A DNA stretch of 64,000 nucleotides from Betaproteobacteria bacterium (GTDB lineage: Bacteria; Pseudomonadota; Gammaproteobacteria; Burkholderiales; SG8-39). Under the pieces are notes generated by a model. That model did not search any database, was not told where the DNA came from, and saw only the letters and a list, made by a program, of their open reading frames with translations. Location of the stretch: NCBI GenBank assembly GCA_004297625.1, contig SCTY01000030.1, forward strand, positions 642 to 64,641, given 5' to 3'. Position 1 is the stretch's first letter; every line of letters begins with the position of its first letter. Of this stretch, positions 17,220 through 28,920 are shown piece after piece. A program made the position numbers and the translations under genes.

Positions 17220-20200
17220 TCAGGCGGCCGGTCTCAACTCTTTCTCTTCCGACGATGCCTGGAGCGGACGCGTCGGCGCGCCGTGCGGCGCGTATTCCTG
17301 CCAGCTCTTGATCTGCAGCTCGCCGAGGCCCTTCTTGGAGATCGCCTCGACGAAGCGCTGCGCGAGCTGGATGTTGGTGATGAGCGGGATGCCGAAGTCG
17401 GCGGCCTTGCGGCGGATGAGGTAGTCGTTCGCGAGCTCCTCCTCGCCGCTGTGCTTCGGGATGTTGATGACGAGGTCGAAGGCCCGGCGCTCGAGGTATT
17501 CGAGCGTGTTCGGCGAGCGCGCGTCGGTCGGCCAATGGAGCAGCATCGCGGGAATGTCGTTCGCCGCGAGGAAAGCCGCCGTGCCCTCGGTCGCATAGAG
17601 CTCGACGCCCATCGCGCGCAGCGTGTGCGCGCTCTCGAGGAAGGCCGCCTTGTCGGCGATCGGGCCGGTGGAGAGCAGAACCTTGCGCACCGGCAGGCGA
17701 AAGCCGACCGAGATGAGCGCCTTGAGGAACGCCTCTTCGAAGTCGTCGCCCAGGCAGCCCACCTCGCCGGTCGAGGCCATCTCGACGCCGAGCACCGGGT
17801 CGGCGCCTTCCAGGCGCGTGAAGGAGAACTGCGGTGCCTTGACGCCGACGTACTCGAGGTCGGTCGCCGAGCCGTTGTGCACGGGAACCGGGCGGCCCAT
17901 CATCACCGCCGCGGCCACGTCGATGAAGTTGACGCGCAGCACCTTCGAGACGAACGGGAAGCTGCGCGAGGCGCGCAGGTTGCATTCGATCACGCTCACA
18001 TCGTTCCCCTTCGCGAGGAACTGGATGTTGAAGGGCCCGTGGATCTTCAGCGCCGCGGCGATGCGCGCCGAGATACGCCGGATGCGCCGCACGGTCTCGA
18101 GATAGGTGCGCTGCGGCGGCAGCACGAGCGTCGCATCGCCCGAATGCACGCCGGCGTTCTCGACATGCTCGGAAACGGCCGACACGACCAGCTCGCCGTT
18201 GCACGCCACCGCGTCCATCTCCAGCTCGCGCGCGTTCTCCAGGAACTTGCTGATGACGACCGGGTGCACCGGCGAGACGTCGGTCGCGCGGCGCAGGAAG
18301 CGCACCAGCTCCGCGTCGTTCGCCGCCACGCCCATCGCGGCGCCGGAGAGCACGTACGAAGGACGCACGAGCACCGGGTAGCCCACGCTGCGGGCGAACT
18401 CCAGCGCACCGGCTTCGCTCTTCAGCTCTTTCCAGGCGGGTTGCACGATGCCGAGCTTGTCGAGGAGCCGCGAGAACTTGTGGCGGTCCTCGGCGGTGTC
18501 GATGCTCGCCGCGCTGGTGCCGAGCACGCGCACGCCGGCGTTCGCGAGCGCGAGCGCGAGGTTGTTCGGCGTCTGCCCGCCGACCGACACCACCACGCCG
18601 AGCGGCCGCTCGCGGCGATAGAGCTCCAGCACCGTCTCGAGGCTGATCTCGTCGAAATAGAGCCGGTCGCACTCGTTGTAATCGGTGCTCACCGTCTCGG
18701 GATTATGGTTCAGCATGAGGGTCTTGTAGCCCTGCCTGCGCAGCGCCTGCACGGTGTTCACCGCGCACCAGTCGAACTCCACCGAGCTGCCGATGCGGTA
18801 GGCGCCCGAGCCGAGCACCAGCACCGATTTCTCCAGGTCGCCGGCGGCAATGTCGTCTTCCTCGCCGTTGTAGGTGAGGTAGAGGTAGTTGGTCTGCGCG
18901 GGATACTCGCCGGCGAGCGTGTCGATCTGCTTCACCCGCGGGACGATGCCCGCGGCTTCGCGGGTTTCCCGTATTTTTTCAACCGAAGAATCGGAAAGGG
19001 CGGCGATTTGCGCATCCGAGAAGCCGGCGCGCTTGGCTTCCAGAAGCGTCTCTCTCGAAACCTGCGCCTTGAGCCGCTGCTCGATCCGCACGATGTGCTG
19101 CAACTTCTGCAGGAACCAGCGATCGATGTGCGAGAGCTCGTTGATTCTCTCGAGGGTGTAGCCGCGCCGCAGCGCCTCGGCCGCGACGTGGATGCGCTCG
19201 GGCGTGGGCTCGCGCAGCAGCCTGTCGATGTCCTCGTCCGCGAACGTCGCGCCCGGCACGCCGAGCATGCGCAGCGCTTTCTGCAGCGCCTCCTCGAAGC
19301 CCCGGCCGATCGCCATCACCTCGCCCACCGATTTCATCGACGAGCCGATGGTCTGGGCCGCGCCGCGGAATTTCTGCAGGTCCCAGCGCGGCGCTTTCAC
19401 CACCACGTAGTCGAGCGCCGGCTCGAAGCACGCCCGGGTGGCGCCGGTGATGGCGTTCGCAAGCTCGGTCAGGCCGTGGCCCAGGCCGAGCTTCGCGGCG
19501 ACGAAAGCGAGCGGGTAGCCCGTCGCCTTCGACGCCAGCGCCGAAGAGCGCGAAAGGCGGGCGTTCACCTCGATGGCGCGGTAGCGGCCGGTGCGCGGGC
19601 AGAGCGCGAACTGGATGTTGCACTCGCCCACCACGCCCAGATGGCGCACGGTGCGGATGGCGATACTGCGCAGCCGGTGGTATTCGCGGTTGGTGAGCGT
19701 CTGGCTCGGCGCGACCACGATGCTCTCGCCGGTGTGGATGCCCATGGGATCGAGGTTCTCCATGTTGCATACCACGATGCAGTTGTCGAAGCGGTCGCGG
19801 ACCACCTCGTATTCGATCTCCTTCCAGCCGACGAGGTACTCCTCGATCAGCACCTGGGGGCTGTGGGCGAGCCCCTTGGCCACCCGCTCGCGCAGCTGCG
19901 CCTCGTCGGCGCAATATCCGGAGCCCAGCCCGCCGAGCGCGTACGCGACGCGCGCCATCACCGGATAGCCGATGTCCTTCGCCAAGGCCACGGCTTCGTC
20001 GATGGTCTGCGCCGCCGCGCTGCGGGGCACTTCGACGCCGATCTCCGCGAGCCGCGCGGTGAACAGCGCGCGGTCCTCGGTTTCCTCGATGGTGCGCACC
20101 GGCGTGCCTAGCACCGCGACGCCGTACTTTTTCAAAGTGCCTTCCCGTTCGAGCGCCAGACCGCAATTCAGCGCGGTCTGCCCGCCGAAGCTGAGCGCGA

Positions 20201-20435
20201 TCGCATCCGGGCGCTCGCGCTCGATCACCTGCGCCACGAACTGCGGCGTGACCGGCAGGAAGTAGATGCGATCGGCGAGCGCCTCCGAAGTCTGGATGGT
20301 GGCGATGTTCGGGTTCACGAGCACCGTCTCGACGCCCTCCTCCTTGAGCGCCTTGATCGCCTGGCTGCCCGAATAGTCGAACTCGCCCGCTTCGCCGATC
20401 TTCAACGCGCCGCTGCCGAGAATCAGGACTTTCAT
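17220..20435 (-). CDS. carB: carbamoyl-phosphate synthase large subunit
   Basis: MKVLILGSGALKIGEAGEFDYSGSQA, two ATP-grasp halves, 1071 aa. ATGA overlap with carA. Confidence 0.95.
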   Translation of the reverse strand: MKVLILGSGALKIGEAGEFDYSGSQAIKALKEEGVETVLVNPNIATIQTSEALADRIYFLPVTPQFVAQVIERERPDAIALSFGGQTALNCGLALEREGTLKKYGVAVLGTPVRTIEETEDRALFTARLAEIGVEVPRSAAAQTIDEAVALAKDIGYPVMARVAYALGGLGSGYCADEAQLRERVAKGLAHSPQVLIEEYLVGWKEIEYEVVRDRFDNCIVVCNMENLDPMGIHTGESIVVAPSQTLTNREYHRLRSIAIRTVRHLGVVGECNIQFALCPRTGRYRAIEVNARLSRSSALASKATGYPLAFVAAKLGLGHGLTELANAITGATRACFEPALDYVVVKAPRWDLQKFRGAAQTIGSSMKSVGEVMAIGRGFEEALQKALRMLGVPGATFADEDIDRLLREPTPERIHVAAEALRRGYTLERINELSHIDRWFLQKLQHIVRIEQRLKAQVSRETLLEAKRAGFSDAQIAALSDSSVEKIRETREAAGIVPRVKQIDTLAGEYPAQTNYLYLTYNGEEDDIAAGDLEKSVLVLGSGAYRIGSSVEFDWCAVNTVQALRRQGYKTLMLNHNPETVSTDYNECDRLYFDEISLETVLELYRRERPLGVVVSVGGQTPNNLALALANAGVRVLGTSAASIDTAEDRHKFSRLLDKLGIVQPAWKELKSEAGALEFARSVGYPVLVRPSYVLSGAAMGVAANDAELVRFLRRATDVSPVHPVVISKFLENARELEMDAVACNGELVVSAVSEHVENAGVHSGDATLVLPPQRTYLETVRRIRRISARIAAALKIHGPFNIQFLAKGNDVSVIECNLRASRSFPFVSKVLRVNFIDVAAAVMMGRPVPVHNGSATDLEYVGVKAPQFSFTRLEGADPVLGVEMASTGEVGCLGDDFEEAFLKALISVGFRLPVRKVLLSTGPIADKAAFLESAHTLRAMGVELYATEGTAAFLAANDIPAMLLHWPTDARSPNTLEYLERRAFDLVINIPKHSGEEELANDYLIRRKAADFGIPLITNIQLAQRFVEAISKKGLGELQIKSWQEYAPHGAPTRPLQASSEEKELRPAA

Positions 20436-27911: not shown

Positions 27912-27915
27912 GAGC

Positions 27916-28920
27916 TCAGGCGTGCTTGCGAATCGCGAGCGCGAGCTGCGGCGTCAGCTCGAGCCCCGTGATCCGCTTGCCGGCCTTGAGCGAGGCCCAC
28001 AGGGATCTCTTGAGCCATGCGCGGCGCGGCGAGAGCTTGGCGTACCAGAGATCGATCCGGTCGCCCACGCCCCTGCGCGGCGCAAGCAAGGCGGGCGAGC
28101 CTTGCTTCGAAAGGATGCGGAGCACTTCGCCCACGGTGGCGCCGCGTATTCCCGCCCGCAGCATCTCCTCCCATTGCATGTCGCGCCTGACGTGCGGGGA
28201 GAACCGGCGCGCAACCCGCATGGCGATGCCGTCCGGCAGGTAATTGATGAGCGGCAAGCCGGTGGTGTGGAACTCGATCGCCGAATAGCGATGCGGCGTC
28301 TGGTTCAGGAACAGCACGCCGCCGGTCTTGAGGTGCCGCCAGATGCGCGGGAGCAGCGCGGCGCGCTCTTCCGGCAGGAGATGCTCGAAGACGGCGCTCA
28401 ATACGATGTAATCGAATTCGCCGAGGTCCCCGGGAAGCGAATCGCCGGCCGGCGAGCGCAGGAAGCGCACGTTGCGCCGCCCGAAGTGCCGCGCCCGCAG
28501 CCGCGCGAGCTTCAGGAGGCGCTCCTGGAGCTCGATGCCGACCAGCTCGCAGCCGGGCAGCAGCCGGCTGAGCACCATGGTCGAGGCGCCTGCGCCGCAG
28601 CCGAAGTCGAGCACCCGCTTTCCGGCGAACTCGGCCGGCTCCACGTAGCCGAGCACTTCGTGCCTTAGGGCGTGCTCGACGTAGGATGGGTCTTCCTCGC
28701 GCATGATCTCGTCGCACACGTAGGCGCGCTTCGTGGCCACGATTTCGCGGATAAGCGCCGGCGGATACGAGGTCACCCAACTGCGGCAAGGTCCTGAAGC
28801 GCCTGACTTGCCTTCCACTGAAATGCGGTGCCTTCCGTCGGGAAGGCGTTCGATGCGGACTGCCGGCTTTACGGCGGCCAGAGAATCGGGCTGTGCAGCT
28901 CGGAGCGCTTTTGCAGACAT
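27916..28920 (-). CDS. class I SAM-dependent methyltransferase
   Basis: Motif I RVLDFGCGAGAST. Start placed at ATG 28920 because the conserved leader ends there. An alternative ATG exists at 28950. Confidence 0.7.
   Translation of the reverse strand: MSAKALRAAQPDSLAAVKPAVRIERLPDGRHRISVEGKSGASGPCRSWVTSYPPALIREIVATKRAYVCDEIMREEDPSYVEHALRHEVLGYVEPAEFAGKRVLDFGCGAGASTMVLSRLLPGCELVGIELQERLLKLARLRARHFGRRNVRFLRSPAGDSLPGDLGEFDYIVLSAVFEHLLPEERAALLPRIWRHLKTGGVLFLNQTPHRYSAIEFHTTGLPLINYLPDGIAMRVARRFSPHVRRDMQWEEMLRAGIRGATVGEVLRILSKQGSPALLAPRRGVGDRIDLWYAKLSPRRAWLKRSLWASLKAGKRITGLELTPQLALAIRKHA

Follow-up and report, generated by a model that had tools for sequence, protein, structure and literature searches.

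A putative self-supplied carbamoylation module with SxtI/J/K-like proteins and a foreign-type carAB at a betaproteobacterial exopolysaccharide locus

In the saxitoxin gene cluster, the O-carbamoyltransferase gene sxtI is accompanied by sxtJ and sxtK, and a GDSL lipase gene, sxtL, lies after sxtI-J-K, next to sxtK (PMC2679770, PMC2885083). SxtJ and SxtK are still only hypothesised to act with SxtI (PMC2679770, PMC12300590; bioRxiv 10.64898/2026.06.11.731795). Here we describe a comparable set of genes in a 64,000-nucleotide stretch of DNA from a Betaproteobacteria bacterium (assembly GCA_004297625.1, contig SCTY01000030.1, positions 642 to 64,641), referred to below as the window. Eight genes on the minus strand (17220-27844) encode an SxtJ-like membrane protein, a DUF5989 protein, an SxtI-like carbamoyltransferase, two anchored SGNH-family proteins (SGNH1 and SGNH2) with a secreted beta-helix protein between them, and the two subunits of a carbamoyl-phosphate synthetase (CPSase), CarA and CarB (Table 1). 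As in the saxitoxin cluster, a NodU/CmcH-type transferase of about 611 aa, an SxtJ protein of about 130 aa and a membrane protein of about 50 aa are encoded together, and a GDSL/SGNH gene adjoins them (PMC2679770, PMC2885083, PMC12300590). Unlike the saxitoxin cluster, the genes described here belong to a betaproteobacterial polysaccharide locus, follow the order J-K-I, include two SGNH paralogues and a private carAB pair, and are not accompanied by toxin genes.

Other described systems resemble parts of this locus. The NodU, NolO, CmcH, TobZ, NovN and GdmN enzymes share with the window transferase a two-domain architecture and full-length homology, and their carbamoyl phosphate and ATP chemistry is presumed to apply here; unlike the present transferase, these enzymes are not known to have SxtJ/SxtK-type partners and use the cellular carbamoyl-phosphate pool. 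In the AlgI/AlgJ/AlgF/AlgX, PatA/PatB, WssF-I and OafA/OatA systems of O-acetylation, an anchored extracytoplasmic SGNH protein is coupled to cytoplasmic donor activation in a similar manner, whereas the module here contains no MBOAT or Acyl_transf_3 (AT3) translocator and its donor enzyme is a carbamoyltransferase. Pathway-specific second CPSases are known from the arginine- and pyrimidine-specific enzymes of Bacillus and Lactobacillus, where carAB lies in the operon of the consuming pathway. In contrast to those duplicates, the consumer in the window is a proposed glycan-tailoring carbamoyltransferase, and the copy is of a foreign type.

The explanation that we favour, and that we hold to be moderately probable, is that the eight genes make up a carbamoylation module that supplies its own donor and acts on an envelope polysaccharide, most probably the neighbouring exopolysaccharide of the Eps/XrtB type. 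In this scheme, CarA and CarB would produce carbamoyl phosphate from glutamine, bicarbonate and ATP, in addition to a presumed housekeeping enzyme. By analogy with TobZ, the cytoplasmic SxtI-like transferase would use carbamoyl phosphate and ATP to form carbamoyl-AMP and pass the carbamoyl group to a sugar hydroxyl. The SxtJ-like and DUF5989/SxtK-like proteins would anchor the transferase at the inner membrane, where it could act on a lipid-linked repeat unit or on the nascent polymer. One or two anchored SGNH enzymes in the periplasm would then edit, remove or relocate acyl or carbamoyl groups on the exported polymer, on which, in this lineage, the secreted beta-helix enzyme may also act. What we infer in this scheme is the substrate, the existence of a membrane complex, the side of the membrane for each step and the role of the SGNH proteins; it is supported by the family assignments and by intact active-site residues in the carbamoyltransferase, CarA, CarB and the SGNH proteins.

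Protein identities were assigned with Pfam and NCBIfam profiles at curated cut-offs, and folds with AlphaFold models and Foldseek. The source genome was viewed through the 64-kb window, and relatives within 10 kb on either side of a match. From the methyltransferase gene upstream of the module to SGNH1, the intergenic gaps are, in order, 71, 9, 3 and 7 nt; the junctions from SGNH1 to carB overlap by 11, 4, 4 and 4 nt, with 4-nt overlaps coupling SGNH2 to carA and carA to carB, and a 111-nt gap then precedes the open reading frame (ORF) at 16017-17108. The window has a G+C content of 68%, with a range of 64-72%, and genuine genes are marked by a third-codon-position G+C content (GC3) of about 0.9, which was found in all operon genes with the exception of ORF 16017-17108 (GC3 0.71). 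The coordinates, gaps and overlaps given in an earlier note on this DNA were all reproduced by ORF listing, translation and start mapping, and its gene identities were confirmed by Pfam and NCBIfam matches above the cut-offs, only Beta_helix falling marginally below.

That note had described a ten-gene operon. The packing holds for all ten, but only eight, beginning with the sxtJ-like gene and ending with carB, make up the conserved unit, since the closest relative lacks both the methyltransferase gene and the paralogues that flank the operon in the window. This relative, GCA_040960765.1 (L245; related loci are given such numbers where they need to be told apart), carries the same eight genes in the same order from sxtJ to carB, with 97% identity in CarB and 94% in the beta-helix protein. 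It has no toxin-antitoxin pair of the kind described below for the window, and its sxtJ gene is preceded by a 350-nt divergent intergenic region. The arrangement is not a product of chance, as the same genes co-occur again in unrelated assemblies. The methyltransferase gene, absent at that position in both L245 and L161, is an addition specific to the window, and a separate copy of the leader precedes it. In its place, sulfotransferases or other methyltransferases were observed in L164 (4296-5246 and 13225-14202) and L162 (19100-19873), and the tailoring gene content around the carbamoylation core differs from strain to strain.

CarA scored 427.8 bits with TIGR01368 (cut-off 307) and CarB 1463.9 bits with TIGR01369 (cut-off 1027). 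CarA has CPSase and GATase domains, and its triad C237/H321/E323 corresponds to C269/H353/E355 of E. coli CarA, to which the protein is 41% identical overall. In CarB, which is 44% identical to the E. coli enzyme, all 13 of the 13 catalytic residues checked are the same, and the two ATP-grasp halves, the oligomerisation domain and the MGS-like allosteric domain are complete. On the basis of domains, triad and catalytic residues, the pair is predicted to be a glutamine-dependent carbamoyl-phosphate synthetase.

However complete, the two subunits are not of the kind expected in a proteobacterium. CarA is of the short, non-proteobacterial type, 343 aa long, and its nearest species representatives among the matches listed belong to Spirochaetota, Caldithrix, archaea, Ignavibacteria and candidate phyla (49-61% identity). 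For CarB, the nearest species representatives among the matches listed are from Ignavibacteria, Calditrichia, Bacteroidetes and similar groups (58-66%), with 60-68% identity recorded to CarB proteins of the first three, and in a PDB search human CPS1 outscored E. coli CarB. Betaproteobacterial housekeeping CarB is generally much nearer to the E. coli enzyme than 44%, and at this identity the window protein falls outside the proteobacterial housekeeping CarB clade. By contrast, GlmS from the same window best matches Nitrosomonas and Paraburkholderia (61-64%), which puts the host among the beta- and gammaproteobacteria. Judged by these comparisons, carAB is a foreign-type (xenologous), non-proteobacterial copy, and we propose that it was acquired horizontally.

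Relatives of CarB at 79-91% identity are numerous in soil, sludge and similar metagenomes in a large protein collection, and NCBI labels on the close homologues are those of Burkholderiales or Betaproteobacteria metagenome-assembled genomes. For relatives of at least 72% identity, every context examined contained the trio of transferase, SxtJ and DUF5989 genes within 10 kb of carAB (L161, L162/L163, L164/L167, L165, L166, L168 and L245). The gene order in these loci is far from constant. With J for SxtJ, K for DUF5989, CT for the carbamoyltransferase and bhelix for the beta-helix protein, at least four orders occur, those listed being J-K-CT-SGNH-bhelix-carAB, carAB-SGNH-SGNH-J-K-CT, SGNH-J-CT-K-carAB, carAB-J-K-CT and CT-J-K-carAB. 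Transferase linkage was also found for more distant atypical carAB pairs, in L171 (68%), L177 (65%), L024 (4997-13202; gammaproteobacterial bin, 55%) and L365 (1-4524; Verrucomicrobia-labelled contig). In these four loci carAB is joined to the transferase and DUF5989 outside the Burkholderiales clade, apparently independently. In a further locus, L170, the carbamoyltransferase next to carAB is a different one, with just 35% identity. The persistence of the linkage through gene shuffling, and its return in separate lineages, provide the strongest indication that carAB serves the carbamoyltransferase. The private carbamoyl-phosphate supply for a glycan-tailoring carbamoyltransferase that had been proposed from the window sequence is therefore supported by comparative genomics, through the foreign type of carAB and its linkage across rearrangements. 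A literature search for a dedicated CPSase beside an O-carbamoyltransferase returned nothing relevant.

A different view of the same genes is that carAB is the housekeeping, and possibly the only, CPSase of this organism, acquired by replacement, and that it neighbours the glycan locus but does not serve it specifically. Its catalytic residues and most allosteric ones are preserved, as in the housekeeping enzymes of other phyla; in a comparison for loss of UMP/ornithine control, the CarB regulatory residues resembled those of housekeeping relatives, the variable K993 position excepted. The relatives at 58-68% identity from other phyla show no linkage to a carbamoyltransferase, and the source genome is seen here only as far as the window extends. 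Set against this, the linkage to the trio outlasts at least four rearrangements and returns in separate lineages, a stop/start overlap binds carA to the SGNH gene, and the identity to E. coli CarB is low for a betaproteobacterium. In addition, most Gram-negative bacteria carry a single carAB (PMC6245113). Weighing these points, we consider a housekeeping role for this pair quite improbable.

The remaining core of the module was examined with family profiles and against solved structures. The SxtJ-like protein matched PF19588 with 39.9 bits (cut-off 24.4) and contains about three hydrophobic segments. The DUF5989 protein matched PF19451 with 80.4 bits (cut-off 27), has one transmembrane segment and ends in a conserved C-terminal APFIYTLF motif. 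From its size and position, 49 aa in the place of SxtK, it is likely the counterpart of SxtK, for which a length of 54 aa has been described (PMC2679770). In the carbamoyltransferase, PF02543, for a Kae1/ASKHA-like domain, covers residues 2-346 (E 2.9e-102) and PF16861, for a YrdC-like domain, residues 404-593 (E 7.2e-72), and full-length homology was found to the solved enzymes NovN (9s2t, E 1.4e-97), GdmN (E 1e-92) and TobZ (E 1e-89). The motifs HHLSH (131) and GPRALG (423) are intact, and the two-domain chain together with the full-length homology places the protein in the NodU/CmcH/TobZ family. A NodU orthologue was rejected, as NF041651 gave 148.9 bits against an equivalog cut-off of 1000.

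To define the partners of this transferase, one genome per species was scanned with the window protein, yielding 80 loci from Alpha-, Beta-, Gamma- and Deltaproteobacteria, Acidobacteria, Bacteroidetes, Ignavibacteria, Chloroflexi, Nitrospira, Gemmatimonadetes and Pelagibacterales, with transferase identities of 59-73%. An SxtJ gene adjoins the transferase in 75 of the 80 loci and a DUF5989 gene in 77, almost always in the order SxtJ, DUF5989, transferase; L074-L080 show instead the order transferase, SxtJ, DUF5989, as in sxtI-J-K. A member of the SGNH family, detected with an iterated HMM that included the two SGNH proteins of the window, was present within 10 kb in 60 of the 80 loci, in most cases immediately ahead of SxtJ or immediately behind the transferase, and an N-terminal hydrophobic anchor was observed in 47 of 49 scorable members. 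When neighbouring ORFs were clustered by BLAST, the SGNH family was the sole further recurrent partner, and this all-against-all clustering over the 80 loci revealed no conserved partner beyond these four. A protein with at least seven membrane segments lies within 6 kb in 29 of the 80 loci, and a homologue of the AT3 protein of the window is near the transferase in one. As few loci offer a translocating partner, the SGNH protein belongs with the transferase set and not with an acetyl translocator. The conserved core is thus a quartet of transferase, SxtJ, DUF5989 and SGNH, which was also found in named isolates: Ensifer adhaerens L18, Bradyrhizobium liaoningense, Methylocapsa acidiphila B2, Magnetospirillum sp. 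UT-4 and Reyranella aquatilis.

These counts bear on two proposals of the earlier note. All three members of its SxtI/J/K-like trio are present, but the set is incomplete without the SGNH protein as a fourth member, matching sxtI-J-K-L; the SGNH gene is adjacent here in an SxtL-like position, a likeness given by position and the GDSL description of SxtL only. Its suggestion that SxtJ- and SxtK-like proteins are general membrane partners of carbamoyltransferases is upheld by the co-occurrence check for this SxtI-like subfamily, and for this subfamily only. A literature search for DUF5989 returned nothing relevant. A broader proposition would be that the quartet is a phylum-spanning, hitherto unrecognised four-component machine for envelope-glycan carbamoylation across the inner membrane, a carbamoyl equivalent of the AlgI/J/X, PatA/B and OafA acetylation systems with the SGNH protein performing the periplasmic transfer, to which foreign carAB was added in some lineages and which the saxitoxin pathway recruited whole. 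If this were true, sxtJ, sxtK and sxtL would travel with sxtI because that pathway took over an ancestral glycan module; we put forward this proposition with little confidence.

In the AlphaFold model of SGNH1 (pLDDT 82.8), residues 2-29 form a transmembrane helix, and the SGNH fold that comes after it contains a helical insertion; the protein is predicted to be periplasmic. Residues S92, G135, N163 and H365 are invariant among 35 homologues, as are two cysteines, and no Asp is found three residues ahead of the His. The conserved blocks and the fold, with TesA and acetylxylan esterases at E 1e-6 in Foldseek, place SGNH1 in the SGNH superfamily. SGNH2 shares 35% identity with SGNH1 in an N-terminal stretch of 189 residues and has orthologues in L245, L162 and L166. 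An AlgX/AlgJ type was rejected for SGNH1, which scored 17.5 bits with PF16822 (cut-off 26.5) and did not retrieve AlgX or AlgJ among the top 50 Foldseek matches. In view of the 60 of 80 loci with an SGNH gene, the idea of an alginate-style SGNH add-on to the operon is replaced by that of a conserved module member.

The best fold match of SGNH1 is CgnD of the crocagin pathway (PDB 8a2n; E 2.8e-7, TM-scores 0.49 and 0.62, identity about 13%). The crocagin cluster also encodes a carbamoyltransferase, CgnI, but CgnD is a soluble enzyme that slowly cleaves the leader of a peptide natural product, and no SxtJ/SxtK-type partners appear in the accessible part of the source describing it (PMC10070186). 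Together with sxtL, this would make a third co-occurrence of SGNH and carbamoyltransferase genes; the match is modest, may be coincidence, and is not built upon here.

The architecture of the quartet can also be read as a trans-envelope carbamoyl relay, with transferase, SxtJ, DUF5989 and SGNH forming one machine like AlgI/J/F/X, PatA/PatB or OafA. The carbamoyl group would be activated in the cytoplasm and cross the membrane through or together with the small membrane proteins, and the periplasmic SGNH protein would transfer it through a carbamoyl-serine. Such a relay would account for the four parts kept across phyla (an enzyme in the cytoplasm, a pair of small membrane proteins and an extracytoplasmic SGNH protein with an anchor), for the invariant catalytic Ser-Gly-Asn-His and for the lack of an MBOAT or AT3-type partner of the SGNH protein at most loci, and some SGNH homologues do match the Pfam ALGX model PF16822. 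On the other hand, SxtJ with about three helices and DUF5989 with one are far below the known acyl-translocating proteins in size, no carrier of carbamoyl groups is known, TobZ-type enzymes transfer straight to the final acceptor, the saxitoxin substrate is soluble and cytoplasmic, and AlgX and AlgJ are missing from the leading fold matches of SGNH1. We regard the relay as rather unlikely.

The beta-helix protein scored 24.9 bits with Beta_helix, slightly under the cut-off of 25.9. Its AlphaFold model (pLDDT 87.5) comprises a signal peptide, an Fn3 domain and a right-handed beta-helix, for which Foldseek returned weak matches to K1 capsule lyase, pectate lyase and TMEM2 (TM-scores about 0.3). 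Four cysteines are invariant, and these, like the invariant cysteines of SGNH1, suggest an extracytoplasmic location. PDB sequence searches with SGNH1 and the beta-helix protein gave nothing informative. The protein is present in L245 and L161 and absent in L162 and L164, and is an accessory that probably acts on polysaccharide. An AlgG-type C5-epimerase was rejected, as the fold is that of a beta-helix but DPRY/DPRF occurs instead of DPHD and the best fold matches are lyases; the AlgG-like function envisaged at the outset is not borne out for a protein that is found in only some relatives and resembles polysaccharide lyases weakly. A second beta-helix paralogue, 43% identical to that of the operon, lies at 2-1075 (+) and is truncated by the window start. 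In the signal-peptide region of the operon gene, at the overlap with the end of SGNH1 (24205-24290), an in-frame 39-nt expansion was observed. It contains direct and inverted copies of GGGACAGACCCCATTT, including a perfect 27-nt inverted repeat, and encodes the peptide repeat KWGLSLFL-KWGLSLFL, which is absent from the 94%-identical protein of L245; the palindrome gave a spurious Rfam miRNA match.

The SGNH and beta-helix proteins might, alternatively, be unrelated to carbamoylation and partner the AT3 protein (14353-15477) to O-acetylate, deacetylate or degrade the polymer. AT3 with SGNH is a known O-acetylation pairing, as in OafA and OatA, and the AT3 gene adjoins carB in the window, L161 and L245. 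Yet L162 and L164 keep several SGNH genes without AT3, and across the species sample an SGNH gene follows the trio in 60 of 80 loci, compared with one of 80 for AT3, making this alternative very improbable.

The connection to exopolysaccharide rests on position and on a shared upstream element. A Wzx/Wzy-type exopolysaccharide locus of the Eps/XrtB kind occupies 30915-54196 (-) and 54382-55785 (+). It encodes an EpsA regulator, EpsD, EpsE, EpsF, EpsG, a WcaJ-like priming transferase and Wzx- and Wzy-like proteins, together with several GT4 glycosyltransferases, two UDP-sugar dehydrogenases, an epimerase, an AsnB-like amidotransferase and a heparinase II/III-like protein. EpsA (179.9 bits, cut-off 170), EpsD (185.9, cut-off 108.9), EpsE (278, cut-off 262.65) and EpsG (321.2, cut-off 313.8) exceeded their thresholds, while EpsF was slightly short (400.8 against 422.75), and these markers assign the locus to the Eps/XrtB (PEP-CTERM-associated) type. 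No exosortase gene was found among the scanned window proteins. In the window, L161, L162 and L164, the carbamoylation operon is located at the end of the eps locus.

Alignment of the regions upstream of sxtJ from six differently arranged loci revealed TAGTCC-N4-GGAC about 64 nt ahead of the start codon; of the palindromic motif in its general form, TAGTCY-N4-GGAC, the window holds four exact copies compared with 0.05 expected (Table 1). The 65-nt leader of the methyltransferase gene near-duplicates the sxtJ leader, and the copies at sxtJ, the methyltransferase gene and the eps operon have an identical spacing of 32 nt to a -10-like hexamer. In L245, L161, L162 and L166, TAGTCC-N4-GGAC occurs 62-66 nt before sxtJ (starts being approximate), in L164 with one mismatch, and the gene upstream of sxtJ differs in each motif-bearing relative. 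The motif positions are 6385 in L245, 3696 and 18606 in L161, 15474 in L162, 5257 in L164 and 6222 in L166; in L164 the motif is also present ahead of an AlgX-like SGNH gene. It was not found at the transferase loci of other phyla. From its sequence and placement, the motif is probably an operator or promoter element that would put the carbamoylation operon into the eps regulon, with the EpsA-type LuxR regulator as the obvious candidate for its binding protein. No Rfam family matched the 71-nt leader, which is thus not a known riboswitch, and a scan for consensus sigma-70 sites found no promoter, with terminator-like sites at chance level only. Behind the secretin stop codon, the fourth copy has downstream of it a strong GC-rich hairpin with a run of T, GGGGCGCGGC...GCCGCGCCCC TTCTTATTTCT (10125-10205, +), which may be the terminator of the secretion operon or the start of a short transcript.

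Several findings weigh against the favoured explanation. A literature search found no carbamoylated exopolysaccharide for this group. In cyanobacteria, the substrate of the same SxtI/J/K/L set is a small alkaloid, and a polymer substrate is therefore not implied by the set itself. In L245 the operon adjoins type II secretion-like genes and not eps glycosyltransferases; on this neighbourhood the target could be another glycan. As for the donor, carAB is nearby in only one of the 80 transferase loci of species representatives, so the private supply would be a lineage-restricted elaboration. CarB has kept its allosteric domain, which is similar to that of housekeeping relatives, and a separate housekeeping carAB is presumably present, a supposition drawn from the foreign type of this copy and from the single-carAB norm (PMC6245113).

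Another target could be the O-antigen or core of lipopolysaccharide, another surface glycoconjugate made with WbqC, PIG-L, ATP-grasp and metallophosphoesterase proteins, or, as with saxitoxin, a small secreted metabolite. A WbqC/PIG-L cluster is always beside the module (window, L161, L162, L164 and L245), an association that holds with or without the ATP-grasp, Metallophos and AT3 genes, and the neighbourhoods of the quartet in other phyla are very heterogeneous. Added to the setting of the module in L245, these observations fit a different acceptor, and the carbamoylated heptose of the Pseudomonas lipopolysaccharide core is a precedent for glycan carbamoylation. The upstream motif common to the module and the eps operon argues for the exopolysaccharide instead, as do the position of the module at the end of the eps locus in four of these loci and the lack of small-molecule biosynthetic genes in the window. 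We judge another target unlikely, and retain the exopolysaccharide as the favoured substrate. Hopanoids were also considered as a carbamoylation target and dropped, as the module is also carried by Pelagibacter, Bacteroidetes and Ignavibacteria, groups that are not known to make hopanoids.

The WbqC and PIG-L genes belong to a block at 10206-15477 that encodes a PIG-L deacetylase, a methyltransferase, WbqC, an ATP-grasp protein, a metallophosphoesterase and Acyl_transf_3. This block is complete in L161 and L245 and mostly kept in L164, and only WbqC and PIG-L were found in L162. Its conservation suggests a larger sugar-tailoring island, whose function may be to de-N-acetylate and re-acylate an amino sugar. 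To its left, a type II secretion or pilus-like set (1072-10121, +) encodes T2SS G, F and E proteins, PilN, a PilO/M-like protein and a secretin; the same set also neighbours the module in L161, L164 and L245. The right end of the window carries the ordinary chromosomal genes glmS, phoB and ilvA.

The 12-kb operon and the methyltransferase gene are bracketed by an inverted pair of paralogues, with 74% protein identity between 16017-17108 and 29217-30239 (+). The arms of the inverted repeat are about 1 kb long (16093-17094 and 29216-30211) and 74-77% identical at the DNA level. The "shorter paralogue" that had been counted as an operon gene is therefore a true paralogue but an arm of this flanking pair. 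Pfam and NCBIfam gave no match for paralogue B, and neither Pfam nor a PDB sequence search gave one for paralogue A; no homologue of either was found in the related loci, including L161 and L245. An ESIGWKFGE stretch, E-x7-E-like and recognised by eye only, hints at a GT-B glycosyltransferase-like protein. Between the flanking paralogue and the first eps glycosyltransferase gene, a toxin-antitoxin pair of ribbon-helix-helix and PIN-domain proteins (30266-30918, +) was observed, with no counterpart in the relatives.

Table 1. Genes and regulatory features of the carbamoylation operon and its borders in the window.
Feature	Position	Strand	Assignment or remark
Class I SAM methyltransferase, 334 aa	27916-28920	-	Methyltransf_12, _25, _11 matches
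Leader of sxtJ-like gene, 71 nt	27845-27915	-	putative promoter and operator
SxtJ-like membrane protein, 132 aa	27446-27844	-	PF19588
DUF5989 protein, 49 aa	27287-27436	-	PF19451
SxtI-like O-carbamoyltransferase, 611 aa, cytoplasmic	25448-27283	-	Carbam_trans_N and Carbam_trans_C
SGNH1, N-terminally anchored SGNH hydrolase or transferase	24280-25440	-	Lipase_GDSL_2 above cut-off
Fn3 and right-handed beta-helix secreted protein, 588 aa	22524-24290	-	AlphaFold model
SGNH2, anchored SGNH paralogue, 355 aa	21460-22527	-	Lipase_GDSL and Lipase_GDSL_2
carA, CPSase small subunit, 343 aa	20432-21463	-	TIGR01368
carB, CPSase large subunit, 1071 aa	17220-20435	-	TIGR01369
Paralogue B, no family assignment	16017-17108	-	arm of inverted pair, outside the conserved operon
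Paralogue A, 414 aa, divergent from the methyltransferase gene	29025-30269	+	other arm of inverted pair
Motif copy TAGTCTTAACGGAC	27895-27908	-	64 nt before the sxtJ ATG, with TTCGAC at -35 and TTATTT at -10
Motif copy	28970-28983	-	64 nt before the methyltransferase start
Motif copy TAGTCCGTACGGAC	53326-53339	-	about 78 nt upstream of the first gene in the eps operon, just past the EpsA-type regulator gene
Motif copy	10125-10138	+	after the secretin gene

The component families and the SxtI/J/K association are already known. New are the generalisation of a conserved quartet to glycan-type contexts, the recurrent fusion of foreign carAB to it at the operon level, and the motif shared with the eps locus. 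SxtJ and SxtK have been listed as of unknown function since the saxitoxin cluster was described, and the cyanobacterial producers are hard to manipulate; the presence of the quartet in named isolates opens the functions of SxtJ, SxtK and SxtL to tests in organisms that are easier to handle. That foreign carAB is joined to the quartet in one operon is strong genomic evidence for carbamoyl phosphate as the donor, and suggests that the supply of this labile and tightly regulated compound can limit glycan tailoring. A second, pathway-dedicated CPSase would be unusual in Gram-negative bacteria. The module predicts a specific and checkable modification of the polymer. If the favoured explanation is true, carbamoylation would be a little-studied, charge-neutral and esterase-resistant modification of exopolysaccharide, and would concern floc- or biofilm-forming betaproteobacteria, with homologues coming from soil and wastewater metagenomes.

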